From an uncultured Actinomycetes bacterium (GTDB taxonomy: Bacteria > Actinomycetota > Thermoleophilia > Gaiellales > JAICJC01), in the NCBI GenBank assembly GCA_963813245.1, contig CAWEYE010000005.1:114588-178587 (forward strand): a stretch of 64,000 bases of DNA. Direction: 5' to 3'. A program made the translations under genes and the position numbers. Shown one piece after another: positions 3,468-48,292 of this stretch. Within the stretch, counting starts at the first letter, position 1, and the number at the start of each line of letters is the position of its first letter. Below the pieces are notes generated by a model. It had not been told where the DNA came from, made no database searches, and saw nothing but the letters and a program-made list of their open reading frames with translations.

Positions 3468-4427
3468 CCGACCGGGACTTCCGCCAGCGCGAGCGCGGCC
3501 CGCAGCGCCGCGAGCGAGGTCTCGATGCCCTCCTCGGCCCTCATGCGCGGGTCCTCATGCTCGATCGAGATATCGCCGTCATACCCGGCAGCGCGCAGCG
3601 CGGCGAGGAGCGCGGCCCAGGTGGCGGTGTCGTGGCCGGTGCCGACGGCGGCGAAGTGCCACGTCTCCAGGTCGGGGTCGACCGGGAAGCGGCAGTCGAT
3701 CAGGCCGTTGCGGCGCACGCGGTCGGCGTGCACGAGCGTGTCCTTGCCGTGCGCGAAGCCGATGCGGTCGCCGACGTCCTCGATGACGCACAGCGGATCG
3801 ATCCCCTGCCACCAGAAGTGGCTGGGGTCGAAGTTCACACCCAGGTTCGGCCCGGCGTGCTCGGCCAGGCGCAGGAACGACGCGCTCGAGTACGCCGACG
3901 CGCCCGGGTGCAGCTCGAGGCAGATGCGCACGCCGGGCGCCGCGCCCGCAGCCCATCCGCACAGCTCGCGCCAGAACGGCGCCAGCCGCTGCTCGAGCTG
4001 CCATTCCCACAGCGACTCGTCGTCGGGCGTGAGCGCCCACGGGGCGAAGACCGGCGTCTCCCCGCCGTCGCGGCTGCCCGGGCATCCGCTCATCGTGACG
4101 ACGCGGTCGACCCCGAAGCGCATGGGCGAGCTCGATCGCGCCGTGCACGAGCGCCGCATGCCGGGCGCCGACGTCGGCCTGTGGATGCAGGGGATTGCCG
4201 GCCGCGTTCACGCACGAAAGCTGCAGGCCATGCTCGCGCAGCTCGCCCGCCAGCCGGTCGCGGGCGGCCGGCTCGCGCAGGAGCGCGTCCAGATCCAGCT
4301 GGTGGGAGGCCTGCGCCCAGCCGCCCACTCCCATCTCGATGCGGCCGATCCCGCGCTCCGCGCACCAGGCGAACGCCTGCTCGCGCGAATGCTGCGCCAG
4401 GCCGTCGTTGAACACACCTATCTGCAA
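3464..4427 (-). pseudogene. Sugar phosphate isomerase/epimerase (xylose-isomerase-like TIM barrel), broken by one apparent +1 insertion near 4121
   Basis: Track ORFs 3579..4547 (...LQIGVFNDGLAQHSREQAFAWCAERGIGRIEMG...ALVHGAIELAH) and 3464..4159 (RFGVDRVVTMSGCPG...NFDPSHFWWQG...ISIEHED) join seamlessly if base ~4121 is removed. Start taken at TTG 4427 with GGGGAG upstream. Confidence 0.8.
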
Positions 4428-4446
4428 CCGGGACTCCCCGCGTCGG

Positions 4447-4464
4447 GGTTGAAACGTTTCAACC
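4447..4464. promoter_or_regulatory. LacI-family operator: 18-bp perfect palindrome GGTTGAAACGTTTCAACC
   Basis: Perfect inverted repeat with the TGAAACGTTTCA core typical of LacI/GalR operators. It sits in the divergent intergenic region between the isomerase-LacI-ABC operon and iolC, and is AT-rich in a GC-rich context. Confidence 0.65.
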
Positions 4465-4501
4465 GATCGCGTATCTTCTGCCTCGAATTCCGCCTTGTCA
4501 A

Positions 4502-5479
4502 GTGGCGTTTTCTCCAAATCGAAACCTCCCCGTGTCGCCAGACCCATCCCCGAAAACCTCTCCCTCGCGACCGGAGGCGGTCGTCATGGGCCGGGCCGGG
4601 GTCGACCTGTATCCGATGCAGCTCGAGACGCCGCTCGAGGAAATCGAGGGATTTCACAAGTACGTGGGCGGGTTCGCCGCCAACGTCGCCACCGGCCTGG
4701 CCCGGCTCGGCGTGCGGGTGGCGATCATCTCGGCGGTCGGTGACGACGGCCACGGCCGCTTCGTGCGCAGGTTCCTCGAGTCGGAGGGGGTCGACTGCAG
4801 CTGGCTGGGCGTGCACCCGACGCTGCGAACGGCGCTCGCGTTTTGCGAGGCGTGGCCGCCCGACCGCTTCCCGATCACGTTCTACCGCACGCCCACGTGC
4901 CCCGACTGGGAGCTCACCCCGGGCGGGCTCGATCTGGCCGCCATCGCGGCAGCGCAGCTCGTGTACGTGAGCGGCACCGGCCTTGCCCGCGAGCCGTCGC
5001 GGCTCGCCACGATGGCCGTGGTCGAAGCCACGAGCGACGGCGATGCCACCACGGTGCTCGACCTCGACTGGCGCTCGATGCTGTGGGACGACCCGGCCGA
5101 CTACGCCGCCGCGGTGCGGGTGTGCGCCCGCATGGCCGATGTCGTGCTCGGATCCGACGAGGAGATCACCGCCGCCGCGGGTGCGAACGAGCCCGGCCGG
5201 ATCCTGCGCCTCGGGCCGCGGACGCTGGTGCAGAAGCACGGGCCCGACGGGGCGACGGTGCACGGGCGCGACGGCACCAGCGAGCGCATCGCCCCGCACC
5301 CCGTCGCGGTCGTGAACGGCCTCGGCGCCGGCGACGCCTTCGCGGCGGCCCTCGGCTGGCGGCTGCTGCGCGGCGACACCGCCGCCCGGGCGGCCGAGGT
5401 CGCCAACCGGGCCGGCGCGCACGTCGCCGCCCGGCTCGGATGCTCGATCGCGATGCCCAACGAAGGAGACCTGCTGTGA
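4502..5479 (+). CDS. iolC: 5-dehydro-2-deoxygluconokinase (PfkB family)
   Basis: MGRAGVDLYPMQLETPLEEIEGFHKYVGGFAANVATGLARLG...NGLGAGDAF, an IolC-like pattern. The exact start is uncertain (4502 or ATG 4586). Confidence 0.8.
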   Translation: MAFSPNRNLPVSPDPSPKTSPSRPEAVVMGRAGVDLYPMQLETPLEEIEGFHKYVGGFAANVATGLARLGVRVAIISAVGDDGHGRFVRRFLESEGVDCSWLGVHPTLRTALAFCEAWPPDRFPITFYRTPTCPDWELTPGGLDLAAIAAAQLVYVSGTGLAREPSRLATMAVVEATSDGDATTVLDLDWRSMLWDDPADYAAAVRVCARMADVVLGSDEEITAAAGANEPGRILRLGPRTLVQKHGPDGATVHGRDGTSERIAPHPVAVVNGLGAGDAFAAALGWRLLRGDTAARAAEVANRAGAHVAARLGCSIAMPNEGDLL

Positions 5480-6294
5480 GCGAGCTCATGCTGCGCGCCC
5501 CCGCGCCCGCCGTCACCCCCGCCGACGCGGGGTGGCGCTGGCTCTCGTACCGGTCGGAGCGGGTCGCCGGCAGCCTCGACATCCACACCGGGCCCGACGA
5601 GGTGTGCCTGGTCAACCTCGGCGGGTCGCTCGCCGCGGTCACGGCCGGCGAGCGCCACAGCCTGGGCGAGCGGGCCTCGCCCTTCGCCGACCTGCCCCGC
5701 TCGCTCTATCTGCCGCCGGAGACGGCGTGCACGGTGCAGGGCGAGGGCATGGTGGGCGTCTGCGCCGCCCGCGCCGACGCCGGCCACCCGGTGCAGCCGA
5801 TCCCGCCCGAGCAGGTGCGGGTCGAGGTGCGCGGGTCGGGCAACGCCACCCGCCAGATCAATCACATCATCCCGCCGGAGTTTTCCGCGCACCGCCTGCT
5901 CGTGGTCGAGGTGCTGACGCCGGGCGGCAACTGGTCGTCGTATCCGCCGCACAAGCACGAGCAGGAGCGGCTGCCGGCCGAGAACGACCTCGAGGAGGTG
6001 TACGCGTACCGGTTCGAGCGCCCGGAGGGCTTCGGCGTGCAGCGGCTCTACAGCCGCACGGGCGACCTGGACGAGACGTGGACGGTGCGCGACGGCGACG
6101 TGCTGCTCGTGCCGCGCGGATACCACCCCTTCTGCTCGGCCCACGGCTACCACGGCTACTACCTGAACGCCCTCGCCGCCGAGCGGCGCTCGATGGCGGC
6201 CGAGGACGACCCCGACCTGGCCTGGACGCGGGATACCTGGCCCACACTGGAGCGCGATCCACGCGTCCCCCTGACCGGAGAGGAGACACCATGA
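5476..6294 (+). CDS. iolB: 5-deoxy-glucuronate isomerase
   Basis: GNWSSYPPHKHEQ...EEVYAYRF...GFGVQRLY...VPRGYHPFCSAHGYHGYYLNAL is the IolB signature. The GTG start overlaps the iolC stop (GTGA). Confidence 0.88.
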   Translation: MSELMLRAPAPAVTPADAGWRWLSYRSERVAGSLDIHTGPDEVCLVNLGGSLAAVTAGERHSLGERASPFADLPRSLYLPPETACTVQGEGMVGVCAARADAGHPVQPIPPEQVRVEVRGSGNATRQINHIIPPEFSAHRLLVVEVLTPGGNWSSYPPHKHEQERLPAENDLEEVYAYRFERPEGFGVQRLYSRTGDLDETWTVRDGDVLLVPRGYHPFCSAHGYHGYYLNALAAERRSMAAEDDPDLAWTRDTWPTLERDPRVPLTGEETP

Positions 6295-7208
6295 GGGTCG
6301 CATCCGCACCGGTGTCGTTCGGCATATTCGAGCTGACGGCAGGCGATTCAGGACTGCCCGACCCGGTGGCGGTGCTCGACGCCATGGCCGACACGGGCCA
6401 CGAGGGCACGGAGCTCGGCCCGCCCGGGTACTTCGGCGACGCCGCCGGCACGGCCGCCGCGCTCGCCGAGCGCAACCTCGCGCTCGTGGGGTCGTTCCTG
6501 CCCCTGCGGCTCTCGCGCAAGGAGCACATCGACGAGGACATGGCCTTCCTCGACCGGGCGCTCGGCATCCTCGACGAGACCACGCCGCCGGGGGACACGC
6601 GGCCGATGGCGCTGATCTCGGACGCGTTCTGCGAGCCCGAGCGCCTGGCCGGCGCCGGCCAGATCGAGGAGCGGCCCGACGCATGGCTCGGCGACGCCCG
6701 GTTCGAGCTCCTGGTCGCAAACGCGCAGAGGGCGGCCGAGCGCTGCCTCGCCCGCGGCTACCGGCCGGCCTTCCACTACCACGGCGGCACCTACGTCGAG
6801 ACGCCGCGCGAGATCGACCGCTTCGCCTCGCTCGTCGACGCGAGCGTGCTGGGCTTCTGCTTCGACAGCGGCCATTCGCTCTTCGGCGGCGGCGATCCGG
6901 TGGCGTTCCTCGACACCTACGGCGAGCTCGTCACCCACGTGCACCTGAAGGATGTCGACGGCGCGGTCATGGACGAGATCCGCTCGCGCGGGCTCGGGAT
7001 GGAGGAGGCGTGGCGGCGGGGCGTGTTCTGCCGGTTCGGCGAGGGCAGCGTCGACCTCGCAGCGATCGTCGCCCGGCTGCGCGCACTCGGCTACGACGAC
7101 TGGGTGGTGGTCGAGCAGGACCGGCACCTGAAGCCGGGCCAGACGATCGCGTCGCTCACCGACGATGCCCGCCACAACCGCGAGGTGCTGCGGGAGCTGG
7201 GGGTGTAG
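6291..7208 (+). CDS. Sugar phosphate isomerase/epimerase family protein (IolE/IolH-like TIM barrel)
   Basis: MRVASAPVSFGIFELT...GHEGTELGPPGYF...HLKDVDG...DDWVVVEQD. The ATG overlaps the iolB stop (ATGA). Confidence 0.78.
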   Translation: MRVASAPVSFGIFELTAGDSGLPDPVAVLDAMADTGHEGTELGPPGYFGDAAGTAAALAERNLALVGSFLPLRLSRKEHIDEDMAFLDRALGILDETTPPGDTRPMALISDAFCEPERLAGAGQIEERPDAWLGDARFELLVANAQRAAERCLARGYRPAFHYHGGTYVETPREIDRFASLVDASVLGFCFDSGHSLFGGGDPVAFLDTYGELVTHVHLKDVDGAVMDEIRSRGLGMEEAWRRGVFCRFGEGSVDLAAIVARLRALGYDDWVVVEQDRHLKPGQTIASLTDDARHNREVLRELGV

Positions 7209-7224
7209 GGGCAGAATCCGCGAG

Positions 7225-7801
7225 GTGTTCGCCCCCGCCTACCCGATCGAGACCGAGCGGCTGCTGCTGCGCCCCTACCAAAAGGGCGACTTCGACGCGC
7301 TCCACGCGATCGAGTCGCGGGCCGACGTCAACCGCTATCTGTACTCGGAAGCGCGCGGCGGCGACGAGGTGCACGGCATCCTGCGCCGGAAGCTGGATGA
7401 GACCGGCCTGCGCGATGAGGGGGACACGCTTTCGGTGGCATGCGTGCGCAGGGACACGGGCGGCGATGATCGGCGGCTGCATTCTGCACTGGGCCAGCCG
7501 CGAGCACGGTCTGGGCGAGATCGGTTTCGTGCTCCACCCCGACCACCACGGCCACGGCTACGCGACCGAGGCCGCCCGCCCGCTGCTCGAGTTCGGCTTC
7601 GCCACCGTCGGCTTGCACCGGATCATCGGCCGGCTCGAGGCCAGAAACGTGGCATCGGCGCGCGTGCTCGAGAAGCTCGGCATGCGCCGCGAGGCGCTGC
7701 TCATCGAGAACGAGTGGGTCAAGGGCGAGTGGCAGAGCGAGCTCGACTACGCGATCCTCGACCGCGAGTGGCGGGCGCTGCGCGCGGTCGGCGGCGCTTG
7801 A
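7225..7801 (+). pseudogene. GNAT (RimJ/RimL-type) N-acetyltransferase, broken by one apparent +1 insertion near 7462
   Basis: N-terminal part IETERLLLRPYQKGDFDALHAIESRADVNRYLY...SVACVRRDTG is in the frame of ORF 7165. The continuation AMIGGCILHWASREHGLGEIGFVLHPDHHGHGYATEAARPLLEFGF...ARNVASARVLEKLGM is in the frame of ORF 6683..7801. Confidence 0.75.
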
Positions 7802-7931
7802 CAGCCGCCGCTCCCATCCGCCGTGCTCGAGGTCGCCGTAAGCCCCAACTTACGGTGAGTCTAGACGGCGAAGGCTGGACGGCACTCTTCGAGCTCTTCC
7901 GCAGCGTCGTCGCCGGCCGCTGAGGTTGGTC

Positions 7932-9653
7932 TTAGGCAGCCTGGCGCTGGTCGCCGGAGAGGAGCCCGTTGAAGAGCATCGTCGGCAGCGGCTTGCTGTA
8001 GAGGTAGCCCTGGCCGATCTCGCAGCCGAGGTCGCGCAGGAAGGTCAGCTGCGCCTCGGTCTCGATGCCCTCGGCGAGGCACTGGATGCCGAGCTTCGCG
8101 GCCATCGTGATCATGGTCTCGACGAGCACCCCGGCGTCGCGGTCGTCGGGCAGGTCCTTCACGAACGAGCGGTCGATCTTGATCATGCTCGGCCGCAGGC
8201 GCCGCAGCCGCCCGAGCGAGGAGTAGCCGGTGCCGAAGTCGTCGATTGCCAGGCGCAGGCCCTGGGAGTGGATCTCGTTCAGCATCGGATCGAGATCCGT
8301 GATGTCGGTCATCGCGGCCTGCTCGGTGAGCTCGATCATGATCCGGTCGGGGGTGAGCCCGAACGATTCGACCGTCGCGATCACGCGGCGGATGGCGGAC
8401 GCCTGCCAGTACGCCGGCGGCAGGTTGACCGAGGCGTACAGGTCGAGGTCGCGGTCGCACCAGCGCCGCGCCTCGATGCAGGCTCGCTCGAGCACCCATG
8501 CCGTCATCGGGCGGATCAGGCCCGTGCGCTCGGCGGCCGGCAGGAACGCGCCGGGCAGGAGCAGGCCGGCCTCGGGATGGTTCCACCGGATCAGCGCCTC
8601 GGCACCCACGATGCACGACTGCGTGAGGTCTACGATCGGCTGGTAGTACAGCTCGAGCTCGTCCCGCCGCTCCGCCAGCCGCAGCTGAGATGCGATCGCG
8701 AGCTCCCTGCTCGAGTCGCGCTTCGGCGGCTGGTACAGGCGGTAGCCGTCGCGGCCGCCGTCCTTGGCCGCGTACATGGCGATGTCGGCGTGCTTGAGCA
8801 GCGTCTCGGCGGTGTCGCCGTCGGCCGGAAAGAGGCTGGCGCCGATGCTCGGGGTGACGTAGAGGTCGGTGTTCGCGACCGCGAACGGCTTTGCGAGCGC
8901 CGCCCGCAGGTTCGCGGCCACGGTCTGCGCGGCCGTCTCGGGGGACGCCTCGGCGGCCGCTCCCTGCACGAGCACCAGGAACTCGTCGCCGCCCTGGCGG
9001 GCGACCACGTCACCGGCCCGGCACGACTCGCGCAGCCGCTTTGCGACCATCACGAGCAGTTCGTCGCCGACGGCGTGACCGAAGCTGTCGTTCACCAGCT
9101 TGAAGTCGTCGAGGTCGATGAACAGCACCGCGCCGCCCGAGTGCGAGCGCGCGGCGTTGGCGATCGCGACGGTGAGGTGCTCCTGGAAGAGCGCCCGGTT
9201 GGGCAGGTCGGTGAGCGGGTCGTGCAGCGCCAGGTGGGCGAGCCGCTCCTCGCCCGACCGGCGCTCGGTCACGTCGAAGAGGACGCCGTCGACATGCAGC
9301 ACGACGCCGTCGAGCCCGTAGACGCCCTGACCGTGGCCCTGCACCCAGCGCGTGCTCCCGTCGGCGTGGACCAGGCGATACTCGATCGCGTACGCCTCGC
9401 GGCGGTCGAGCGCGCCGCGGAAGAGCGCCGTCACCGCATCGAGGTCGTCGGGGTGGATGATGCTCGAGTAGGGGCGGCCGGCCTCGCCCAGGAGGGCGGA
9501 GGGCGGATAGCCGGTGATGGACTCGATCGACGGCGCGACGGCGCGCATGATCCAGCGCTCGTCCAGGCGCTCGTGCCGGTACGGCGTCCCCGGCAGCACC
9601 GAGACCTGCGCACCGGAGCGTCCACTCCAGGGTATGCCCGCGCGACTTTGCAT
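7932..9653 (-). CDS. PAS-GGDEF-EAL c-di-GMP signalling protein
   Basis: PAS (SIESITGYPPSALLG...IEYRLVHADGSTRWV), GGDEF (RQGGDEFLVL) and EAL (EALIRW...DDFGTGYSSL...KIDRSF...EGIE) domains. Start taken at ATG 9653 (GGGGGGA upstream). Confidence 0.9.
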   Translation of the reverse strand: MQSRAGIPWSGRSGAQVSVLPGTPYRHERLDERWIMRAVAPSIESITGYPPSALLGEAGRPYSSIIHPDDLDAVTALFRGALDRREAYAIEYRLVHADGSTRWVQGHGQGVYGLDGVVLHVDGVLFDVTERRSGEERLAHLALHDPLTDLPNRALFQEHLTVAIANAARSHSGGAVLFIDLDDFKLVNDSFGHAVGDELLVMVAKRLRESCRAGDVVARQGGDEFLVLVQGAAAEASPETAAQTVAANLRAALAKPFAVANTDLYVTPSIGASLFPADGDTAETLLKHADIAMYAAKDGGRDGYRLYQPPKRDSSRELAIASQLRLAERRDELELYYQPIVDLTQSCIVGAEALIRWNHPEAGLLLPGAFLPAAERTGLIRPMTAWVLERACIEARRWCDRDLDLYASVNLPPAYWQASAIRRVIATVESFGLTPDRIMIELTEQAAMTDITDLDPMLNEIHSQGLRLAIDDFGTGYSSLGRLRRLRPSMIKIDRSFVKDLPDDRDAGVLVETMITMAAKLGIQCLAEGIETEAQLTFLRDLGCEIGQGYLYSKPLPTMLFNGLLSGDQRQAA

Positions 9654-9772: not shown

Positions 9773-9788
9773 ATGCCGCATGCGGCAT
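9773..9788. repeat. 16-bp perfect palindrome ATGCCGCATGCGGCAT upstream of the membrane GGDEF-EAL gene
   Basis: Read directly from the sequence. It lies in the divergent intergenic region between two c-di-GMP genes. Its function is unknown (operator or 5' hairpin). Confidence 0.5.
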
Positions 9789-9882
9789 GTACTGCCGGCC
9801 CGGTGCGCCGACCGTAAGGGGGGTGGTGCAGTCACCCCCTCATTCCGCCGTGCACACGATCCCGGGCATCGTGCGGTTCGGC

Positions 9883-12060
9883 ATGGCGGCGATGGTCGCG
9901 GCGGTCGCAGGCCAGGCGCTGCTGGCGACCCTCGGCCTCGACACAGGCGCCGACATCGCCGGTGGCCTGGTCGTGCCCCTGCTGGCGGCTCTGATCGTCG
10001 CCGAGCGGGTGCGGCGGACACATTCCGAGCGCACCGCCTGGTCCGCGGTCGTCGTGGCCCTCGGTCTTCTGATCGCCGGCAACGTCTACTGCGTGCTTGC
10101 GTTCGCCGATCCCGCGAACCCGCCCGTGCCCTCGCCGGCCGATATCGCCTACCTGTCCGAGTACCCGCTGATGTTCATGGCGCTCGGGCTGCTCGTGCGT
10201 GACCGGGCCGTCGGCTTCCGGCCCAGCCTCTGGATCGACGGCGTCGTGGCGACGCTCAGCGTCGCCGGAGTGTGGACAGCGCTCGATCCGCCGCACGTCG
10301 CCCACGCCGGGTCGATGCTGGAGGCGCTCACCCTGCACGCCTACGTCGTCGGCGACGTCGTCCTCGCCGCCGCCGCCGTCGGCACCTTCGCCCTGTTCTC
10401 GTGGCGGCCGGGGCCGGCCTGGCTCGTGATCGCGGGCGGCCTGGTGGCGCAGTCGGCCGCCGATCTGCTCACCACCATGTCCTCGAGCGGGCACAGCGCC
10501 GCAGTGCTGCAGCTGATCGGTGTGCTGTGGAGCGTGGCCGTGGCAACGTTCATCATCGCGGCCTGGCTGCCGACCACCAAGCGCCCCCACCACACGATCG
10601 CCGGCTGGCGGGCGCAGGCGCCGACGGTCGCCTTCTCGACCGTCGCGCTGGGCACGCTCGTGGCCGGCGTCGCCGGAGACGTGCCGGTGCTCGCCCGCAC
10701 CCTTGCGACCGCCGCCGTCGCCGCCGCGATGCTGCGGCTCCTGTGGACGGCAAACGAGAACGTCGGCCTCGAGTTCGCCCGCAGGCTCGCGGTCACCGAC
10801 GATCTGACCGGCCTCGGCAACCGCCGCCAGCTGTGGACCTCGATCCGGGCGGCCTGCGCGCGCCGGGAGCGGTTCGCGTTGCTCATGATCGACCTGGACG
10901 GCTTCAAGGAGGTGAACGACGCGCTCGGCCACAATGCGGGCGACCTCCTGCTGCAGGGGATGGCCGACCGGTTCTCGCGCCTGGTCCGGCCCGACGACGT
11001 GCTCACCCGCCTGGGCGGCGACGAGTTCGGCGTGCTCGTGCGGGCCTGCGACGAGGCCGCCGCGGTGGCCTTCGCCGACCGGGTCGGCGAGGTGCTCGAG
11101 ACCGGCTTCGAGGTGCACGGCATCACGGTCCGCGTCGCGGCCAGCGCCGGCATCGTGATCGCCACCGGCGACGACACCGCGCCGGAGCTCCTGCGCCGGG
11201 CCGACGTCGCGATGTACGAGGCCAAGCGCAATCGCAGCCGCCGCGAGGTGTACGACCCCGAGACCGACCAGCGCTCACCCGCCCGTCTGGGGATGATGGA
11301 CCAGCTGCGCCGGGCGATCGAGTCGCGCACGCTCGCCGTGCACTACCAGCCGAAGGCGCATCTGCGCTCGGGCGAGGTGTACGGGCTCGAGGCGCTCGTC
11401 CGCTGGCGCATGCCCGATGGCGAGCTGCTGATGCCGGCGGAGTTCCTGCCCCTGGCCGACAACGCCGGGCTCATGTACGAGCTGACGCTGTGCGTCCTCG
11501 AGCGCGCCCTCGCCGACGTGGCCCGCCTGCGCGTGCGCCGGCCGCAGCTGACGGTCGCGGTGAACGTGCCGCCGGTGGCGATCCTCGACGCCAACCTGGC
11601 GCTCGACATCGCCCGCCTGCTGGCCGCCGCCGGCCTGCCCGGCCGGGCTCTCGAGATCGAGATCACCGAGGAGAGCCTCATGGCCGACCGCCTGCGCGCC
11701 CGGTCGCTGATCGCCGGCCTGCGCGAGCTCGGGGTGGCCATCTCGATCGACGACTACGGCACGGGCTACTCGTCGCTCCCGTACCTGCGCGACCTCGAGG
11801 TCGACTCGCTCAAGCTCGACCGCTCGTTCGTGACCGGCCTCGCCCACAGCGGCAAGGCGGGCACCATCGTCGCCTCCACGATCAAGCTCGCCCACGCGCT
11901 CGGCCTGTGGGTGGTGGCCGAAGGGGTCGAGTCGAGCGACGACTGGCTCGCGCTCGACGCGCTCGACTGCGACGCCGTCCAGGGCTTCCTGCTCTCACGC
12001 CCCGTCCCGATCGAGGTCATCGCCGGGTCGCTCGGGTCCGCCGACGCGCAGGCCGCGTGA
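9883..12060 (+). CDS. Membrane-anchored GGDEF-EAL c-di-GMP signalling protein
   Basis: About 9 predicted hydrophobic helices, then GGDEF (RLGGDEFGVL) and EAL (EALVRW...DDYGTGYSSL...KLDRSF...EGVE). Start taken at ATG 9883 (MAAMVAAVAG). Confidence 0.9.
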   Translation: MAAMVAAVAGQALLATLGLDTGADIAGGLVVPLLAALIVAERVRRTHSERTAWSAVVVALGLLIAGNVYCVLAFADPANPPVPSPADIAYLSEYPLMFMALGLLVRDRAVGFRPSLWIDGVVATLSVAGVWTALDPPHVAHAGSMLEALTLHAYVVGDVVLAAAAVGTFALFSWRPGPAWLVIAGGLVAQSAADLLTTMSSSGHSAAVLQLIGVLWSVAVATFIIAAWLPTTKRPHHTIAGWRAQAPTVAFSTVALGTLVAGVAGDVPVLARTLATAAVAAAMLRLLWTANENVGLEFARRLAVTDDLTGLGNRRQLWTSIRAACARRERFALLMIDLDGFKEVNDALGHNAGDLLLQGMADRFSRLVRPDDVLTRLGGDEFGVLVRACDEAAAVAFADRVGEVLETGFEVHGITVRVAASAGIVIATGDDTAPELLRRADVAMYEAKRNRSRREVYDPETDQRSPARLGMMDQLRRAIESRTLAVHYQPKAHLRSGEVYGLEALVRWRMPDGELLMPAEFLPLADNAGLMYELTLCVLERALADVARLRVRRPQLTVAVNVPPVAILDANLALDIARLLAAAGLPGRALEIEITEESLMADRLRARSLIAGLRELGVAISIDDYGTGYSSLPYLRDLEVDSLKLDRSFVTGLAHSGKAGTIVASTIKLAHALGLWVVAEGVESSDDWLALDALDCDAVQGFLLSRPVPIEVIAGSLGSADAQAA

Positions 12061-14205: not shown

Positions 14206-14210
14206 CCCGG

Positions 14211-16190: not shown

Positions 16191-16219
16191 GACGACCAGC
16201 GCAACGACGGCGGCCAGGT

Positions 16220-17200
16220 CTATCCGCCCCTCGCCTTCGCGATCTCGGCCGTGATCGCCGGCACCACCTCGTGCAGGTCGCCGATCACGGCGTAGTCGGC
16301 GTTCGCGACGATCGGGGCGTCAGGGTCGGTGTTGATCGCGAGGATGCGCTTGGCGCCCTTGCAGCCGGCCATGTGCTGGGTGGCGCCGCTGACCCCGCAC
16401 GGGATGTAGATCTCGGGCGCGATCTTCGTGCCCGTCTGCCCGACCTGGTCGGTGTGCGGGCGCCAGCCGGCGATCGTGACCGCGCGCGAGCAGCCCACCG
16501 CACCGCCGAGCGCGGCCGCGAGCGCCTCGATGGCCGCGAAGCCCTCGGCCGAGCCGACCCCGCGGCCGCCCGTCACGACCGCCTTCGCATCGGCGAGCGA
16601 GACCCCGCCGCCGGTATCGGTCTGCGTCCGCTCGGACACGCGCGCGACGAGATCCGCGCCGTGCAGCGCGGGCGTGAACTCCGCGACCATGGTCTGCACC
16701 GGCGCGGCGGCGGGCTGCGCCTCGACCGCGTGCGGGGCGACCGTGAGCAGCTTGACCGCGCCGTGCAGGCGGGCCTGCTCGAGCAGGCTCCCGCCCCAGC
16801 GCAGGCGCGTCACGGTCGCCGGGTCGCCGGGGGCCGCATCGACGCAGTTTGCGGCCAGCGGCAGGTCGGTGATCGCGGCCGCGTGCGCCATCGCCTCGGT
16901 GGCACGCTCGCTGCCCGGGGCGATCACCGCCGCCGGGGCGAGCCGCCCGATCAGCTCCGCGACCGTCCTGCCCCACGCCTGGGGCGCATACGCCGCAAAG
17001 GCGTCGTGCACGGCGACGTGCGCCGCGTGAACGCCGAGCTCGCCGAGCCCGGCCGCCGCCGCTGCGGCATCGGCGCCGATCAGCACGGCCTCGACCGGGC
17101 CGCCGCCCGCCTCGGCATAGCCGCGGGCGAGCGTGAGCGCCTGGCGGGAGACGTCGTCCGGGCCGCCGCCCGCGTGTTCGACCAGGACGAGCACGCTCAC
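16220..17200 (-). CDS. etfA: Electron transfer flavoprotein alpha subunit
   Basis: VSVLVLVEHAGG...VVTGGRGVGSAEGF...GWRPHTDQVGQTGTKIAPEIYIPCGVSGATQHMAG. The GTG start at 17200 overlaps the etfB stop. Confidence 0.9.
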   Translation of the reverse strand: MSVLVLVEHAGGGPDDVSRQALTLARGYAEAGGGPVEAVLIGADAAAAAAGLGELGVHAAHVAVHDAFAAYAPQAWGRTVAELIGRLAPAAVIAPGSERATEAMAHAAAITDLPLAANCVDAAPGDPATVTRLRWGGSLLEQARLHGAVKLLTVAPHAVEAQPAAAPVQTMVAEFTPALHGADLVARVSERTQTDTGGGVSLADAKAVVTGGRGVGSAEGFAAIEALAAALGGAVGCSRAVTIAGWRPHTDQVGQTGTKIAPEIYIPCGVSGATQHMAGCKGAKRILAINTDPDAPIVANADYAVIGDLHEVVPAITAEIAKARGG

Positions 17201-17965
17201 AGGACGCCCGCCTGGCGCAGGATCTCGACCACCGCCGGCGCCGCCTCGGCCCCGTGGCCGAGGATCTGGGCCTGCTTGCCCTGGCCCTCCGGCACGACCA
17301 GCCGCACCTTCTCGACGCCGGCGCCGGCGCGAACAGGCGTGCGCGTCTCGAGCGGCTTGCGCTTGGCCCGCATGCGCCCCGGCACCGACGGGTAGCGGGG
17401 CAGGTTCAGCCCCTCCTTGACCGTCACGACGGCCGGCAGCGGCAGGGTGTAGACGTCGCGCCCGCCCGGCACCTCCTGCTCGCAGCGCACGCTGCCGTCG
17501 GCGACGGCGACGCCCTTGAGGCCGGTCGCGCAGGGCCGGCCGAGGGCGTGGGCGACGCGGATCCCGACCTGGTAGTTGCCGGCGTCGGCCGACTCGTTGC
17601 CGAAGAAGATCAGGTCGTACTCGGTGCCCGCCGCCCGCTCGGCCTCGATCGCCTCGAGGATCGCCCGGGCGGTCGCCTGGCCGTCGAACTCCTCGTCGGC
17701 CAGGAGCAGGATCGCCCGGTCGATGCCGAGCGCCATGCAGTCGCGCAGCTGCTCCTCGGCCTCGGCCGGCCCGAGCGTGAGCACGGTCGAGCTGCCGCCG
17801 TGCTGCTCGACCAGGCGCACGGCCTCCTCGACGCCGCACTCCTCGTGCGGGCTGATCGTGAAGCCCAGGTGACGGGTCTCGATCGCCTGCTCGTCGGCGG
17901 TCGAGCACGATGCGGCCGCCGGTCATCGGCACCCGCTTCACGCAGCAGAGGATGTTGAGCGGCAC
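17197..17965 (-). pseudogene. etfB: Electron transfer flavoprotein beta subunit, broken by one apparent +1 insertion at ~17902
   Basis: MPLNILCCVKRVPMTGGRIVL (frame of ORF 16220..17965) continues as TADEQAIETRHLGFTISPHEECGVEEAVRLVEQHGG... (frame of ORF 17197..17820) once one base is removed. Confidence 0.85.
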
Positions 17966-20486: not shown

Positions 20487-20555
20487 CGCGCGGTCCTCCT
20501 CGGTCGTCCAACTGAGGCGCCGCACTTGCCCGCGCCCCTCCGGTCTGGTAGACAA

Positions 20556-20567
20556 CTGATATATCAG
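20556..20567. promoter_or_regulatory. 12-bp perfect AT-rich palindrome CTGATATATCAG (candidate GntR operator)
   Basis: Lies in the divergent intergenic region between the dehydrogenase-etf operon and the GntR gene. It is one of the few AT-rich spots in the window. Confidence 0.4.
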
Positions 20568-20620
20568 AGCCGTCGCCCGCACGCAAGCGCCCTGCAACCG
20601 GGGCCGATGACGAGTCCGTC

Positions 20621-22426: not shown

Positions 22427-22564
22427 CCGACGGCGTGCGCGGCACGGCCGGGAAGAACTCCGGACACCGCCGCGTCGAGTGGGTAGAGTCATCCCCCACG
22501 ACGGATCGCGATCGGGCAGGGCAACATGCGAGCGATCCCCCATCCGCACGACGGAGGCATGAGC

Positions 22565-23362: not shown

Positions 23363-23369
23363 GCGACGG

Positions 23370-33924: not shown

Positions 33925-33955
33925 GGCGAGATGATAACGTCGGCGGCGAGGCACG

Positions 33956-35368: not shown

Positions 35369-35372
35369 CACC

Positions 35373-37342: not shown

Positions 37343-37384
37343 CGGCGCCTTCACTCCCCGGCGGCCCGGCCGATCTTCCGGGAT

Positions 37385-37407
37385 ATCGGTTGCACACGTG
37401 AACCGAT
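37385..37407. promoter_or_regulatory. Inverted repeat ATCGGTT-N9-AACCGAT (CACGTG in the spacer) 10-32 nt upstream of the MshEN-GT2 start
   Basis: 7-bp arms read directly, in an AT-richer patch (gatgcaaatcctATG). Function inferred only. Confidence 0.3.
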
Positions 37408-37416
37408 GCAAATCCT

Positions 37417-40828: not shown

Positions 40829-40848
40829 CCCGGCTGGAGGGATCTACG

Positions 40849-41646: not shown

Positions 41647-42835
41647 CCGCGGCGCCTTCCGTGAAGATCATCCCGCCTGCGATCGCCGGCTGGCCGGCGG
41701 TGGCCACGCTGCTCGCGAAGAGCACCTGGCCCGTGCGAGCGTCGAGCGCCTCCAGCGTATCGGAGTCGACGCCGTAGACGACTCCGCCCGCCACCGCGGC
41801 CGGCGAGAACTGATCGCCCTGGGCCCGCGGATCGCGCCAGAGCACACGGCCCGTGGCCGCCGAAAGGGCGCAGAAGCAGGGCCCTTCCTGGAAGCCGACG
41901 AACACCCGCCCGCGCGTCACGGTCGGGGTCGTGAAGAGGCCGCCGGGCTGCGCCGGGAACGCGTGCGACCACAGCCGCTGCCCGGCCGGCGTGAAGGCCG
42001 TGACGGCTCCGACCCCGCCCACGTAGACCACCCCGCCGCTGACCGACGGCGACTGGAAGACGCCGCCCGCAGGGTTGCGCGACCAGCGCAGGTGGCCGGT
42101 GGCCGCATCGAAGGCGACGAGCCGGCCCGGCTGCGTCTGCGGCACGGAGCCGAAGTCGCCCGATGTGGCGGCGTAGGCCACGCCCCCGGCGACGGCCGGC
42201 GAGAGCGCTCCGCCGGCGGTGGCGATGGTGCGGTGCCAGAGCGGGGCGCCGCCGCCCGCCGTGAACGCGTACTCGGCTCCCGGCTGGGCCTGGCCGGGAG
42301 CGCCCGTGGCCACGAACACGCGGCCGCCGGCGACGGTGGGCGCGTCGACCCACCCCGAAGCGTCTGTGTGCCTGCTCCACAGGCGCTGGCCGGTCGCCGC
42401 CGAGAGCGCCACGAGGTCGTCGACCGGCGCCCCCACGCCGACGTAGACGACGCCGCCGGCGACGGCCGGCGTCGAGAGCCCGGAGCCGGCATGCAGCGTG
42501 ACCGTCCACCGGTGCGCGCCGGTGGCCGCGGCGAGGGCGTAGAGCACGCCTCCGGGCGAGCCGGCGAACACGGTGGCGCCTGCCACGATGGGCGACGGCT
42601 CGGGTCCCGCGCCGTCCGACCCCAGGCTGACAGGCACCGACCAGACGGCGTGCAGATGCCCGACCGCCGATCGCGCGGGCGCCGCCGAGGCCGCAGCCGC
42701 GCCGGCGTGCGCCGCCGAGCCGCCGTACTGACCCCAGCCGGGCACGGGCGCCCCCGCCGCCTGCCCGGCTCCCAGCACGGCCGCCGCGCACACCGCCGCG
42801 GCCAGGGTTGCAACAATCGGCACCCGTCTGCCCAC
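41627..42835 (-). CDS. Secreted PQQ-like beta-propeller repeat protein
   Basis: Signal peptide MGRRVPIVATLAAAVCAAAVLGAGQAAGA. Repeated xGGVVYVG...LxAxxAATGxxxW blades (at least 7 repeats by eye). Confidence 0.75.
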   Translation of the reverse strand: MGRRVPIVATLAAAVCAAAVLGAGQAAGAPVPGWGQYGGSAAHAGAAAASAAPARSAVGHLHAVWSVPVSLGSDGAGPEPSPIVAGATVFAGSPGGVLYALAAATGAHRWTVTLHAGSGLSTPAVAGGVVYVGVGAPVDDLVALSAATGQRLWSRHTDASGWVDAPTVAGGRVFVATGAPGQAQPGAEYAFTAGGGAPLWHRTIATAGGALSPAVAGGVAYAATSGDFGSVPQTQPGRLVAFDAATGHLRWSRNPAGGVFQSPSVSGGVVYVGGVGAVTAFTPAGQRLWSHAFPAQPGGLFTTPTVTRGRVFVGFQEGPCFCALSAATGRVLWRDPRAQGDQFSPAAVAGGVVYGVDSDTLEALDARTGQVLFASSVATAGQPAIAGGMIFTEGAAVTAWSP

Positions 42836-42860
42836 GGCGCGGATCGTACCCCGGGTCGGC

Positions 42861-43932
42861 CTACCCGTTTGGGTGGGTTTTGGCCGCCCGCACGAGCTCG
42901 TCGCCGACCTCGCCGGTGCCGGCCGTGCCGCCCAGATCGGGGGTGCGCACGGCGCCCGCGCCGAGCACGCCTTCGAGCGCCGCCATCACCCGGGCCGCCG
43001 CCGCACCCTCGCCGAGGTGGTCGAGCATCATCGCGCCGGCCCACACGGCGCCCACCGGGTTTGCCAGCGAGCGGCCGGCGATGTCGGGTGCCGACCCGTG
43101 CACCGGCTCGAACAGGCCCGGGCCCGTGCCGGCGGGCGAGACGTTCGCGCTCGCGGCGAGGCCCATCCCGCCCTGGATGGCGGCGCCGATGTCGGTGATG
43201 ACGTCGCCGAACAGGTTCGAGGCGACCATGACGTCGAACCGCTGCGGCTGGGTGACCATGTAGGCGCAGGCGGCGTCGACCAGGATCCGGTCGAGCTCGA
43301 CGTCGGCGAAGTCCGCGTGCACGGCGCCCACGATCTCGTCCCACATGACGAAGTGGTGCGGGCTCGCGTTCGACTTCGTGATGCTCGCGAGCTTGCCGCG
43401 CCGCGACCGGGCGAGCGCGAACGCGTGGCGGACGACGCGCTCGACCCCGACGCGGGTGAAGACGTCCACCTGCAGGCCGACCTCGTGGCCCATGCCGACG
43501 TGCACGCGCCCGCCGAGCGCCGGCGTACTCGCCCTCGGTGTTCTCGCGCACGCACACCATGTCGATGTCGGCGGCGGAGCGGCCGGCGAGCGGCGTGGCC
43601 ACGCCGGGCAGGAGCCGGATCGGGCGGATGTTCAGGTAGAGGTCGAAGCGCTGCCGGATCGGCAGCAGCAGGCCCCACAGGGTGACGTGGTCGGGCACGC
43701 CGGGCGAGCCGACCGCGCCGAGGTAGACGGCGTCGTGCTGCTCCAGCCGGCGCAGTCCGTCGGCCGGCATCATCGCGCCGGTGCGGGCATGGTGGTCGCT
43801 GCCCCAGGGCAGGTGCTCCCACTCGAGCCGGCACTCCTCGCCGCAGGCCGCATCGAGCACCCGGATGCCCTGCTCGATCACCTCCGGCCCGACGCCGTCG
43901 CCGCCGATCACGGCGATCCGGTGCCGCCTCAC
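42861..43932 (-). pseudogene. Isocitrate/isopropylmalate dehydrogenase family (tartrate dehydrogenase-like), one apparent +1 insertion at ~43518
   Basis: RIAVIGGDGVGPEV...MVCVRENTEGEYAG | LGGRVHVGMGHEVGLQVDVFTR...SNLFGDVITDIGAAIQGGMGLAASAN. The two pieces are in adjacent frames. GTG 43932 or the upstream 43968 could be the start. Confidence 0.8.
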
Positions 43933-43942
43933 CGCGCCACCG

Positions 43943-44771
43943 TCAGCCGCCCTTGATCGCGCCGGCAACCAGACCCCGCATGAAGAAGCGCTGGCCGAAG
44001 ATGTAGAGCGCGAAGATCGGCAGGGTCGCGATCGAGAGGCCGGCCATCACCACGGGGATGTTGAGGTTGTAGCGGTTCTGGAACCCGGTCAGCCCGGCCA
44101 TCAGCGTGAGCGAGTTCTCGCTCTGCAGGAAGACGAGGGCGATCAGAAGCTCGTTCCACACCCACAGCGCGTTCACGACCGCGAGCGTGATCAGCGGCGC
44201 GCCGGAGAGCGGCACGACCACGCGCAGGAACACCTGCAGCGACGAGGCGCCGTCGATCTCGGCGGCCTCGATCAGCGACCGCGGGATCGTGCGGAAGTAG
44301 GCCGCGAGCATGTACACCGAGAACGGCATCATCAGGCCGACGTAGATCGCGATCACGATCCGGCGGGTGTCGATCAGGTTGAGCTCGGCGCCGAGCAGGA
44401 AGAGCGGCACGACCAGCACCACCGGCGGGATCACCATCAGCGAGATGATCAGCGAGAGCATCACCTCACGGCCCACGAACTGCCAGCGCGAGAGCCCCCA
44501 GGCGGCCAGCGACGCGAACACGAGCGTGATCACGACCGACGCGATGGTCAGGATCAGGCTGTTCAGGAGCCACTGCGGGAAGTGGTTGTTGAGCGCCGTG
44601 TGGTAGGCGTTCAGGCGCGGCGACGGTGGGCAGGCCCAGGGGATGGTTCAGGAAGTCGCTCTGCGTGCGCAGCGACCCCGAGAGCATCACGTACACCGGC
44701 AGGAGCGCCGAGACCGTGAACGCGATCAGCACGAGCTGGCGCAGGAGCCGGCCGCCGCGCTCGACGATCAT
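43943..44771 (-). pseudogene. Carbohydrate ABC transporter permease (MalG-like), one apparent +1 insertion at ~44621
   Basis: MIVERGGRLLRQLVLIAFTVSALLPVYVMLSGSLRTQSDFLNHPLGLPTV | PRLNAYHTALNNHFPQWLLNS...EAAEIDGASSLQVFLRVVVPLS (EAA loop). Confidence 0.82.
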
Positions 44772-45692
44772 GCCGGCCTCCGGCGCGAGTAGCCGAAGCG
44801 GACGACCAGGAAGGCCGCGGCGACCGCGGTCACGCCGATCAGGAGCAGGGTCGCGGCAGCCGCCGCGAGCCAGCGGGATGTCCGACGTGAACGCGTTCTG
44901 GTAGATGTAGGTCTCGGTCACCTGGGTGGCCTGGCCGGGGCCGCCGCCGGTCATCACGAACACGTAGCTGAACACCCACGACATGAGCGTGATCGCCTCG
45001 ATCACGAGGTAGAAGCCGATGATCGAGCGCATCATCGGCAGCGTCACGTGCCAGTGGGTGCGAAACCAGCCGGCGCCGTCGACGCGCGCGGCGTCGAAGA
45101 CGTTCTGCGGCAGCGACAGCAGCCGGGCCAGGAAGAGGATCACGCCGAAGCCGAGCTCGCGCCAGATGATCACGCCCGCGAGCGAGCGCAGCGCCCAGTC
45201 GGGGTTGCCCAGCCAGTCCTGCACCAGGAAGTTCAGGTGCAGCGTCTGCAGCGTCGTGTTGAGCGCCCCGTGCAGCGTCAGGAGCTCGCCGAAGAGCACG
45301 CCGACGACGGTCACCGGCAGCATGTAGGGGATGAACACCGCCACGCGGTGGAAGCGCCATCCGCGCATGCCCTCGTACAGCAGGATCGCCATGAGGAGCG
45401 CGATCCCGATGATGATCGGGAGCGTCAGGAGCAGGCGCAGGTTGTTGCCGAGCGCCTGGCGGAAGAACGGGTCGTCGATCGCGATCCGCAGGTTGCCGAG
45501 GCCGACCGGCTCGCCGTCGCGGTGGGTCGCCTCGATCACGAGGCGGTAGATGCTGTAGCCGTAGACGACGCCGATCGCAGCGAGCGCGGGCGCGATCCAC
45601 AGGAACGCCTGCCACGGAGGGCGGCGGGAGCGGCCGCGTACGGCCGCCCCCGTGCCCCGGTCGCCCGGTGACGCTACTGCTGTCCCGTCCAC
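44768..45692 (-). pseudogene. Carbohydrate ABC transporter permease (MalF-like), one apparent +1 insertion at ~44870
   Basis: ...WQAFLWIAPALAAIGVVYGYSIYRL...FDAARVDGAGWFRTHWHVTLPMM...TETYIYQNAFTSDIPL | LAAAAATLLLIGVTAVAAAFLVVRFGYSRRRPA. The stop overlaps the next ATG (ATGA). The GTG 45692 start is tentative. Confidence 0.78.
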
Positions 45693-47038
45693 TTCTTGAA
45701 GTTGTGCGATCAGGTCGGGCTCGATCGTCCTGATCCGGGCCATGTCGGACTCCATCGTGGCGGCCGCCTGGGCGGCGGTCGTCTTGCCGGCGAACATCAG
45801 CTGCACGCCGCCGAAGTTGGCCTTCGAGTCGAGGTCGGTGGGGATGAAGTTCTCCAGGTAGGGAGCGCCGTTCTGCGAGTAGTCGTACAGCTGCTTCACC
45901 TGCGGCACGTCGATCTGCGAAGAGTCGAAGCGGTCGTCGGCCGGCAGCGCGCCCGTGTCCTTGTAGAACAGCGCCAGCTCCGCCGGCGTGTGCATGAACA
46001 TGATGAAGTCGGCCGACTGCTGCTTGTACGGCGACCACGAGCTGATCGCAAGCGTCTGCGACGTCGAGCCCAGCTTGCCGGCGCCGACGCCGTTTGCGTA
46101 CTTGGGCATCGTCATGACGCCGACCTTGCTCGCCGCCGACCTGGGTGACGAACTTGCGCACGTCGGTGCCGGCCGTGACCGTCATCGCGCTCTTGCCGTC
46201 GACCCAGGTCTGCTGGGCCTGGTACAGGTCGAGCGAGCCGATGTCGTCGTTCCAGCACTTGGCGCTGATCATCTGCCCGAGGCGCGTCCACCACTCGGCC
46301 AGGTCGGGGTCGGTGAACTTCTTCGTCCCGACGACGGCCTGCTTCAGCTCGTCGACCGAGGTCAGCGACTCCGAGCCGAGGATCGAGAAGAGCCATCCGC
46401 CGAACCAGCCGTCCTTGACGCCGCCGGCGATCGGGGTGATGCCCTTCGACCGCAGCGTCGAGCAGTCCGACAGGAGCTGGCTCCAGGTGGTGGGCGCCGA
46501 GGCGATGCCGGCCCGGGCGAGGACGTCCTTGCGGTACAGGATCGGGAACGACGGCTGCACGTACCACGGGGCGCTCCAGAGCTTGCCGTCCCAGGTGTCC
46601 TCGGACGCGTTCAGGTAGTGCGCACGCTCGGCCGCCGGGATGTAGTCGGAGATCGGCGCGAGGTTCCCGTCCCACGCGTCCTGGAGCGCCCAGATGCCGC
46701 CCCAGCGGTACTCGATGTCCGGCCCCTTCTTGGCCTTCGCCGCCGCGGCGAAGTTGGGCATCAGGTTGTCGGTCGACTGCAGCACGGTGTTGATCTTGAT
46801 GTTGGGGTGCAGCGGCCTCGTACTTGCTCACCGAGGTGGCGAGGAACGTGGACAGGCCGTGCGCCTCCTGGTTGCCCCAGTACCACATGGTCAGGGTGAC
46901 CGGGCCGCTCGGCGCGGCCGAGCTGCCGCCTCCGGAGCTGCCGCCGCTGCTGCTGCTGCCGCAGGCCGCTGCGGCGAGCACGATCATGGTGGCGGCCGCA
47001 AACCGCCGCCGGCTGCTTGTGAGGAGCCTGCTGGACAT
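45674..47038 (-). pseudogene. ABC transporter extracellular solute-binding protein (sugar type), three apparent +1 insertions (~46810, ~46128, ~45704)
   Basis: MSSRLLTSSRRRFAAATMIVLAAAACGSSSSGG (lipobox)...SVSKYEAA | HPNIKINTVLQSTDNLMPNF...TAGTDVRKFVTQVGGE | KVGVMTMPKYANGVGAG...IRTIEPDLIA | NFKKWTGQQ-stop. GGGAGGG lies upstream of the ATG. Confidence 0.8.
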
Positions 47039-47065
47039 GAACCCTCCCTGGGACGCTGGGAAGGA

Positions 47066-47097
47066 AGTAAACGCTATAGCATTCCCGGCGTCAAGAG
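47066..47097 (-). promoter_or_regulatory. Promoter/operator element copy A: (minus strand) TCTTGACG-N9-GCTATAGC-g-TTTACT
   Basis: TTGACG and TTTACT are separated by 17 nt, with the perfect palindrome GCTATAGC in the spacer. It lies ~21 nt upstream of the SBP start, in the divergent region shared with the ATPase gene. Confidence 0.5.
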
Positions 47098-47133
47098 CGC
47101 CCGGGGGCGCATGTGCGATGAGGAGTCTCTGAC

Positions 47134-48292
47134 GTGGCCGGAATCGACCTTCTCAACCTCACGAAGGTGTACGCCAACGGGGTGCGGGCCGTCGACGCGA
47201 TCGACCTCGAGATCCGCGACGGCGAGTTCATGGTGCTCGTCGGCCCGTCCGGCTGCGGCAAGTCGACGCTCCTGCGGATGATCGCCGGGCTCGAGGAGGT
47301 GTCGGAGGGCACGGTGCGGATCGACGACCGCGACGTGACCGCGCTCGCACCGCGGGCGCGCGACATCGCGATGGTGTTCCAGGACTACGCGCTCTACCCG
47401 CACATGACGGTGCGCCAGAACCTGGCGTTCGGGCTCAAGCTGCGCCGGGTGAACCGGCGCGAGATCGAGCAGCGCGTGCAGGCGGTGGCGACGACGCTCG
47501 GCCTGCAGGACTACCTCGCGCGGCGGCCGGCGGCGCTCTCGGGCGGGCAGCGCCAGCGGGTCGCGATCGGCCGCGCGATGGTGCGCGAGCCGAAGGCGTT
47601 CCTGATGGACGAGCCGCTCTCGAACCTCGACGCCAAGCTGCGGGTGACGATGCGGGCCGAGCTCGCCCGGCTGCACGAGCGCCTGGCGGTGACGACGGTC
47701 TACGTCACCCACGACCAGACCGAGGCGATGACGCTCGGGCAGCGGGTCGCCGTGATCCGCGACGGCACGGTGCAGCAGTGCGACACGCCGCAGGAGCTGT
47801 TCGACCGGCCGAACAACCTGTTCGTGGCGGCGTTCATCGGGTCGCCGGCGATGAACCTCGTGGCGGCGACGGTCGACGACACGACGATCCGCTTCGCCGA
47901 CATCGCCCTGCCGCTGGCCGAGGGGGCGGCCGTGCGCGGGCCAGAAACGCGACGTGATCCTCGGGATCCGGCCGACCGACTTCGAGCTCCCCGACCGCGC
48001 CGCCGACCCGGGGCTGCCGCGGATCCGGGTCGCGCCCGAGGTGATCGAGGGCCTCGGGGCCGAGACCAACGTGATCTTCCCGCTGGCGGCGCCGCGGGTC
48101 GACAGCGACACGGTGCGGTCGGCGGCCGAGGGCGGCGACGTGGGCACGCTGCTCGCCGATGACGACCGCGCGCTCTTCACCGCCCGCATCGCCACCCGCA
48201 CGCCGCTCGCCCAGAACGGGCCGATCGAGCTCGTGGTGCACAACGCGAGCCTGCACTTCTTCGACCCGGACACCGGCGCAGCGCTGCGCTGA
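47134..48292 (+). pseudogene. Sugar ABC transporter ATP-binding protein (MalK-like), one apparent +1 insertion at ~47944
   Basis: [34 protein letters not shown]...[14 protein letters not shown] | [15 protein letters not shown]...LHFFDPDTGAAL. GTG start. Confidence 0.85.

Follow-up and report, generated by a model that had tools for sequence, protein, structure and literature searches.

Pseudogene-rich, decaying bacterial genomes such as those of Mycobacterium leprae and Leifsonia xyli contain many genes broken by frameshifts. Real genome decay comprises deletions, stop codons, insertions of insertion sequence (IS) elements, a relaxed ratio of nonsynonymous to synonymous substitutions (dN/dS) and lesions common to the strains of a lineage. 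Among known effects of metagenome assembly, metaFlye merges genomes of approximately 97.6-98.7% identity into one consensus (Strainberry paper, PMC8302730). The metagenome-assembled genomes (MAGs) of the Microflora Danica (MFD) collection were built from Nanopore reads using Flye 2.9.2 (--meta --nano-hq) and one round of Medaka 1.8.0 with no short-read polishing, and their authors report Nanopore-associated errors in the MAGs of lower coverage (PMC12313526). Here, we analyse a stretch of 64,000 nucleotides (nt) from an uncultured Actinomycetes bacterium of the Gaiellales (contig CAWEYE010000005.1, positions 114,588 to 178,587; hereafter the window), in which an initial annotation had noticed 23 apparent frameshifts, all of them +1 and most of them clustered in three blocks (17.9-22.0, 38.3-39.3 and 43.5-47.9 kb). 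Our analysis suggests that the 23 extra bases are almost certainly an artefact of the consensus and not mutations in the organism, and that they probably arose by doubling of alleles where two haplotypes had been mixed.

The G+C content of the window is 72%, which makes lists of open reading frames (ORFs) very noisy, and the junctions were therefore evaluated by comparison with relatives. A scan with the intact protein encoded at 39425-40828(-) against the GTDB species representatives reveals that the closest relatives are MAGs named 'uncultured Actinomycetes' or Gaiellales, nearly all of them carrying the MFD prefix, with protein identities of 95% for L001 and 87-88% for L002, L003 and L010. 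Three of the related Gaiellales MAGs (L001, L003 and L013) come out of one sample, MFD10113. The loci of the relatives are syntenic with the window at 15.8-24.8, 27.6-48.3 and 55.1-64 kb. The window was aligned with 14 relatives, and only those indels were retained on which at least two relatives agree, while six junctions outside this set were settled using extra relatives obtained from protein searches and a metagenome scan. The sequences compared include L080 (JGI contig, 92.8% nt identity, window 3-7808), L082 (JGI, 97.1%, window 19529-23817), L163 (NCBI, GCA_047520365.1, 97.1%, window 36680-43296) and L083 (JGI contig, 94.2%).

All 23 frameshifts are borne out by this comparison. At each junction the window contains exactly one extra base with respect to every relative covering it, the extra bases placed by BLAST lie 0-7 nt from the positions given in the initial annotation, and the earlier count of eight insertions in a single family-2 glycosyltransferase (GT2) gene is exact. 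Relative to the consensus of the 14 relatives the window contains eighteen +1 events, 17 of which correspond to the junctions noticed before. They are placed at 17902, 18736-39 and 19853, at eight positions within 38325-39320, and in the third block at 43515-16, 44873-84, 45704-06, 46133, 46813 and 47937. The eighteenth event, at 33936, has a -2 counterpart at 33961-70, the two lying at the 5' end of a gene whose start is 33956, and apart from this 33936-33970 pair all other consensus indels are multiples of 3. Window-specific deletions of 1 or 2 bases are absent wherever at least two relatives agree, and further coding frameshifts are absent from every checkable stretch of the window. When the intact proteins of the relatives were aligned to the window in a frame-aware manner, they matched in successive frames, always displaced in the +1 direction, and neither deletions nor multi-base events were found at the sites. 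The uniform direction is significant (23 insertions versus 0 deletions, two-sided binomial p = 2.4e-7) and so is the clustering, with a variance/mean of 3.6 in 2-kb bins that was matched by 0 of 20,000 uniform simulations. The intervening stretches, earlier described as free of frameshifts, are clean as far as they are testable, and where relatives are missing they consist of long ORFs with complete Pfam domains.

Uniform direction, together with coding sequence that is intact on both sides of each junction, would also suit programmed recoding, in which the reading frames would be put right in vivo through ribosomal frameshifting or slippage during transcription. However, homologues at 85-97% identity have an uninterrupted frame at every site, recoding would need eight sites in one gene with no common slippery motif, and the sites differ between sister MAGs. 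Recoding is therefore barely conceivable as an explanation.

A few other length differences were considered. The candidate at 20502 is intergenic and is +1 relative to L005 and L013 but not relative to L082; 38403/38411 is a compensating pair seen against L001 only; 46967/46971 is a compensating pair within the signal peptide; and the difference at 47103, upstream of the start of the solute-binding protein, is specific to L010. These four were rejected. A possible 24th extra G is present at 40853, just 5' of a gene start, where it causes no coding frameshift. The run of G at this place reads GGG in the window, GG in L163 and GGGCGGG in L001, and sits within a few bases of the start of a plus-strand gene (40849/40858), on one side of it or the other. 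The difference could be due to a 24th spurious insertion outside coding sequence or to a genuine polymorphism in length.

Independent assemblies from the same population or from sister populations, of approximately 93-97% nt identity (L082, L163, L083, L084, L080 and L079) lack every insertion that they cover. The numbers of missing insertions are 4/4 for L082, 8/8 for L163, 4/4 for L083 and 5/5 for L084, and the sites of the third block other than 44626 are confirmed by L083 together with L084. The sole indel between L080 and the window before position 7208 is the extra window A at 4116. Similarly, the length differences between L082 and the window are limited to single extra window bases at 19855, 21303, 21387 and 21993 and to two intergenic indels.

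Deletion of the 23 bases produces 11 full-length ORFs with 0 internal stops (Table 1). In a Pfam scan, 10 of the 11 repaired proteins match in a single stretch, essentially end to end across the junctions. The eleventh, the solute-binding protein, was outside the Pfam scan and is supported by its restored ORF and its identity to L083. The repaired serine hydrolase is 96% identical to the intact P0121 of 394 amino acids (aa) and the repaired GT2 is 94% identical to the intact 666-aa P0241, both with 100% coverage. Mismatches to the relatives that fall in one codon phase amount to 60-82% per repaired gene, compared with approximately 55-100% in intact neighbours, and the substitutions in the repaired genes are mostly at third codon positions, as they are in those neighbours. 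A gene that had truly been frameshifted eight times would be expected to show neutral substitutions, stops and deletions as well, and none of these is seen in the repaired GT2. The interrupted genes are under intact selection and have not decayed.

These results bear directly on genuine pseudogenisation, according to which 23 real mutations would have inactivated an ABC transporter, the electron transfer flavoprotein subunit EtfB, a dehydrogenase, a serine hydrolase and a glycosyltransferase. The extra bases do stand in the deposited sequence, and two of the blocks are located in accessory genes that vary among the relatives and could in principle be dispensable. However, none of the 12 insertions covered by the 97%-identical assemblies of the same population is present in them, the lesions are unique to the window and not inherited by close relatives, and a 2-kb gene with eight insertions shows no stop, no deletion and no lost third-position bias after repair. 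Bacterial mutation is deletion-biased, and deletions are not present at all. Moreover, the same type of error occurs elsewhere in other MAGs of one pipeline and is unseen in the short aligned stretches of non-MFD sequences. Pseudogenisation is thus highly improbable and close to refuted. The initial annotation had also preferred an artefact, and its choice is upheld by the insertions missing from independent assemblies, the integrity of the repaired genes, the same errors in sister MAGs and the lack of deletions or multi-base events at the sites.

Table 1. Repaired genes and extra bases in the window, with the positions proposed by the initial annotation where these differ.
Feature	Position	Strand	Initial annotation	Evidence
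Xylose-isomerase-like TIM barrel protein, 360 aa	3464..4547	-		AP_endonuc_2 1-248 of 249
GNAT acetyltransferase	7165..7801	+		Acetyltransf_3 1-138 of 138
Electron transfer flavoprotein beta subunit (etfB)	17197..17965	-		ETF 7-177 of 181
FAD oxidoreductase with aminomethyltransferase domains (dimethylglycine/sarcosine-dehydrogenase-like), 839 aa	17965..20486	-		DAO 2-353 of 353, FAO_M, GCV_T 2-254 of 255
Class-C beta-lactamase-like serine hydrolase, 394 aa	21239..22426	+		Beta-lactamase 5-313 of 329
MshEN-domain family-2 glycosyltransferase (MshEN-GT2), 667 aa	37417..39428	+		Uninterrupted ORF minus 8 bases; MshEN and Glyco_tranf_2_3 3-230 of 230
Isocitrate/isopropylmalate dehydrogenase family	42861..43932	-		Iso_dh 2-347 of 348
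ABC permease B	43943..44771	-		BPD_transp_1 3-178 of 184
ABC permease A (start approximate)	44768..45683	-		BPD_transp_1 2-179 of 184
Extracellular solute-binding protein, 453 aa	45674..47038	-		Restored ORF; 96% aa identity to L083
ABC ATPase (MalK-like)	47134..48292	+		ABC_tran 2-136 of 137 and OB_MalK
Extra A, xylose-isomerase-like TIM barrel gene	4116	-	4121	+1 vs L080
Extra C, GNAT gene	7461	+	7462	+1 vs JGI contig L079; L080 agrees at 7462
Extra C, etfB	17902	-		+1 vs L005, L007, L013 (3/3)
Extra A, DAO/GCV_T dehydrogenase	18739	-		+1 vs 3/3; window TA, relatives T or A
Extra G/C, DAO/GCV_T dehydrogenase	19855	-	19850	+1 vs 4/4 and L082; window CG, relatives C or G
Extra A, serine hydrolase	21303	+	21299	+1 vs L082
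Extra G, serine hydrolase	21387	+		+1 vs L082
Extra A, serine hydrolase	21993	+	21997	+1 vs L082
Extra base 1/8, MshEN-GT2	38325	+		+1 vs 7/7 and L163; window TC, relatives T or C
Extra base 2/8, MshEN-GT2	38444	+		+1 vs 7/7 and L163
Extra base 3/8, MshEN-GT2	38632	+		+1 vs 7/7 and L163
Extra base 4/8, MshEN-GT2	38699	+		+1 vs 7/7 and L163
Extra base 5/8, MshEN-GT2	38827	+		+1 vs 6/7 and L163; L013 has its own insertion nearby
Extra base 6/8, MshEN-GT2	38896	+		+1 vs 7/7 and L163
Extra base 7/8, MshEN-GT2	39113	+		+1 vs 7/7 and L163
Extra base 8/8, MshEN-GT2	39319	+		+1 vs 7/7 and L163
Extra A, Iso_dh (IPMDH-like) gene	43516	-	43518	+1 vs 12/12; tblastn frame -2 to -3
Extra G, ABC permease B	44626	-	44621	+1 vs L084 (identical flanks) and L010
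Extra base, ABC permease A	44874	-	44870	+1 vs L001, L010, L084; window GC, relatives G or C
Extra G, solute-binding protein	45706	-	45704	+1 vs L001, L010, L083, L084, L085, L086
Extra C, solute-binding protein	46134	-	46128	+1 vs L001, L010, L083, L084, L085, L086
Extra base, solute-binding protein	46813	-	46810	+1 vs six relatives; window CG, relatives 3 G / 3 C
Extra C, ABC ATPase	47937	+	47944	+1 vs L001, L010, L083; window CG, relatives G or C

Analysis of the inserted base reveals that none of the 23 insertions is in a homopolymer of 3 or more bases, and even with the inserted base included the runs are no longer than 2. The inserted base differs from both of its neighbours in 13 of the 23 cases and turns a single base into a 2-base run in the other 10. 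Across the MAGs, extension of a homopolymer is rarer in the real insertions (32%) than in simulated ones (49%). On inspection, no motif is shared around the 23 sites. A restriction- or methylation-type motif was tried because several of the insertions create GC-rich palindromes such as GCTAGC, CCGCGG and GGCGCC, and was rejected since 4-6-mers of this kind are ubiquitous at 72% G+C and none of them is common to the sites. Basecalling errors at motifs are typically substitutions. It is very unlikely, therefore, that the insertions are basecalling errors at methylation motifs or homopolymer-length miscalls as made by 454, Ion Torrent or older Nanopore chemistry. Homopolymer miscalls are the best-known artefact of long reads (PMC9262707) and would be in agreement with the ten 2-base runs, but not with the absence of longer runs, the 13 non-repeated bases or the depletion of extensions relative to random insertion.

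In contrast to random insertions, the extra base is often the alternative allele of an adjacent alignment column. As a control, random bases were inserted near the real sites, realigned and scored. With all relatives included, the extra base corresponds to a neighbouring alternative allele at 14 of the 22 scorable window sites, compared with 23 of 184 simulated insertions (12.5%; odds ratio 12, p = 4e-7). Across the MAGs the corresponding counts are 42 of 75 and 77 of 584 (13%; odds ratio 8.4, p = 1.5e-15). Third codon positions are where natural polymorphism sits, and 9 of the 14 doubled columns are at codon position 3 (p = 0.02). In addition, divergence from L082 is 10.7% in the 84 nt that separate 21303 from 21387, as opposed to approximately 2% in the flanks, which is compatible with a short haplotype switch.

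These features suggest a mechanism in which both alleles of a polymorphic site enter the consensus. The window most likely comes from a long-read, Nanopore-type MAG, probably one without short-read polishing, and in the three blocks its consensus would have been built from the reads of two close, co-occurring haplotypes. At some of the polymorphic sites, mostly synonymous third positions, the two alleles would have been written in tandem, adding one base and shifting the frame. Such doubling of alleles would explain the +1-only direction, the block sizes of 1-4 kb, the avoidance of homopolymers and the conserved-looking flanks. The presence of two of the blocks in accessory genes that are variable among the relatives also fits a mixture of haplotypes, as do the merging by Flye of genomes of approximately 98% identity (PMC8302730) and the origin of L001, L003 and L013 in a single sample.

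Several points weigh against this mechanism. At eight of the 22 scorable sites no alternative allele is seen, but for five of these eight the comparison rests on a single relative. Segment-wise identity between the insertions reveals no clear haplotype alternation in the second and third blocks, nor are the blocks clearly more divergent from L082 and L001 than their surroundings. We infer the second haplotype in the reads from the assembled sequence, and the sequencing platform of the window from its relatives. By our back-of-envelope likelihood, a doubled consensus is not obviously favoured under realistic read error rates, and a literature search for allele doubling by Flye or Medaka returned no more than general remarks about indels and collapsed strains.

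The main rival is generic low-coverage long-read noise, in which few reads would cover the blocks, random errors would survive polishing and only one haplotype would be present. Nanopore-only assemblies below approximately 40x are known to keep gene-breaking indels (PMC9262707), and the remark of the MFD authors on MAGs of lower coverage (PMC12313526) points in the same direction. Noise of this kind accounts for the clustering and for the eight sites without an alternative allele, and the block sizes of 1-4.4 kb are, by our reckoning, on the scale of read length. However, random noise should also produce deletions, against which stands the ratio of 23 insertions to none, and it should favour homopolymers, which the insertions extend less often than simulated ones. 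It also leaves the match to neighbouring alleles, five times that expected by chance, and the enrichment of codon position 3 without explanation. We therefore regard low-coverage noise as unlikely, though it deserves to be taken seriously. The initial annotation had ascribed the insertions to low-quality segments. These are more probably segments of merged haplotypes than simply regions of low coverage.

Errors of the same type are present in sister MAGs. In multiple alignments, we tallied the 1-nt insertions and deletions found in a single sequence only. L001 contains 30 unique insertions and 5 unique deletions, L003 contains 32 and 3, L071 contains 10 and 0, L005 contains 5 and 1, and L013 contains 4 and 0. 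No unique event of either kind is present in L002, L004 and L008, and L010 has 0 insertions and 2 deletions. The non-MFD sequences L064 and L079-L082 likewise have none, in aligned stretches of only 1.6-3.8 kb each. The errors of the sister MAGs are clustered, at positions other than those of the window, and all of the events in L001 are within the ABC-transporter operon that also holds the third block. Because the same errors occur in several MAGs at different sites, the phenomenon belongs to a class of assemblies and not to the organism. We lean slightly towards the view that metaFlye and/or Medaka, when working on collapsed haplotypes, are subject to a systematic and apparently undescribed failure in which both alleles of a single-nucleotide polymorphism are emitted in tandem. 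If this is true, insertion-only blocks of frameshifts in public MAGs, including GTDB representatives and a 'complete chromosome', would be recognisable and repairable from the sequence alone.

The errors of L001 (CAVQXH010000001.1) are located at the equivalent of window 44.06-46.68 kb, and those of L003 (CAVPQP010000009.1) at the equivalents of 29.7-36 and 57.4-60.2 kb. L005 (OY969568.1), which has the same insertion-biased errors, was deposited as a complete chromosome. Some of the public MFD MAGs that serve as GTDB species representatives thus contain dozens of unique 1-base insertions within approximately 20 kb. The GT2 gene of L163, for its part, lacks 2 bases at the window equivalent of 39076 and 1 base at that of 39125 in comparison with the window, which looks like a compensated frameshift over approximately 16 codons; in the alignment of the 14 relatives only the +1 event at 39108-39113 is flagged around these positions.

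Gene content around the blocks varies among the relatives. An island at 43940-56200, which encodes the ABC sugar transporter, a 2-hydroxyacid dehydrogenase, a GntR regulator, three SDRs, a glyoxalase and an M24 peptidase, is missing from L002, L003, L005, L006, L007 and L071. The MshEN-GT2 gene (37300-39420) is missing from L005, L006, L007 and L064, and the serine hydrolase (21240-22500) from L005, L007 and L013. The transporter operon at 43000-47000 has a G+C content of 0.68-0.70, compared with 0.72-0.77 elsewhere, and an AT skew of up to 0.16, a composition that would suit an acquired island. Near the left end of the window, at 1797-2489, a further MalK-like ABC ATPase is encoded, which shows approximately 73% DNA identity to the relatives' copies of the third-block ATPase (47200-47860).

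The repaired MshEN-GT2 protein (37417-39428) carries an N-terminal MshEN domain, of a type known to bind cyclic di-GMP, in fusion with a membrane GT2. Homologues of the protein are labelled by JGI as 'XagB' or as cellulose/PNAG-synthase-like, and two GGDEF-EAL proteins are encoded at 7932-9653 and 9787-12060, according to the Pfam annotation of their L080 orthologues. A contiguous minus-strand cluster at 14211-20486 comprises the 839-aa DAO-GCV_T dehydrogenase, a likely etfB/etfA pair and a CCG/4Fe-4S oxidoreductase, which is the usual order for an amine dehydrogenase linked to electron transfer flavoprotein.

If the sequence were read literally, 11 genes would appear as more than 30 pieces, and gene numbers, the assignment of pathways and the statistics of pseudogenes would all be distorted. 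No function has been lost biologically, and intact genes should be assumed for the ABC sugar transporter, EtfB, the dimethylglycine/sarcosine-dehydrogenase-like enzyme, the serine hydrolase and the MshEN-GT2. The window also serves as a warning, since public Nanopore MAGs of close relatives in GTDB contain dozens of insertion-only errors within approximately 20 kb. The signature by which such errors could be flagged and repaired from sequence only is a +1 event outside homopolymers in which the added base corresponds to the other allele of a variable site next to it.

Compared with the known systems, the window resembles the decaying genomes of M. leprae and L. xyli in its many frameshifted genes, but it is without their mixed lesions, relaxed constraint and lesions shared by a lineage. 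The resemblance to the indels of Nanopore-only assemblies, as recognised by truncated-protein tests of the IDEEL type (Sereika et al. 2022, PMC9262707), is closer: single-base indels split conserved genes, are missing from short-read or independent assemblies and are concentrated in MAGs made with Flye and Medaka without short-read polishing. However, those indels are mainly changes in homopolymer length in both directions, whereas the window contains insertions only, with no run of 3 or more and mostly at polymorphic columns. For collapsed-strain contigs of metaFlye, a hybrid consensus and the loss of strain variation have been described, and not tandem alleles (PMC8302730); nevertheless, as would befit such contigs, the errors of the window are found at sites that are variable among close relatives.

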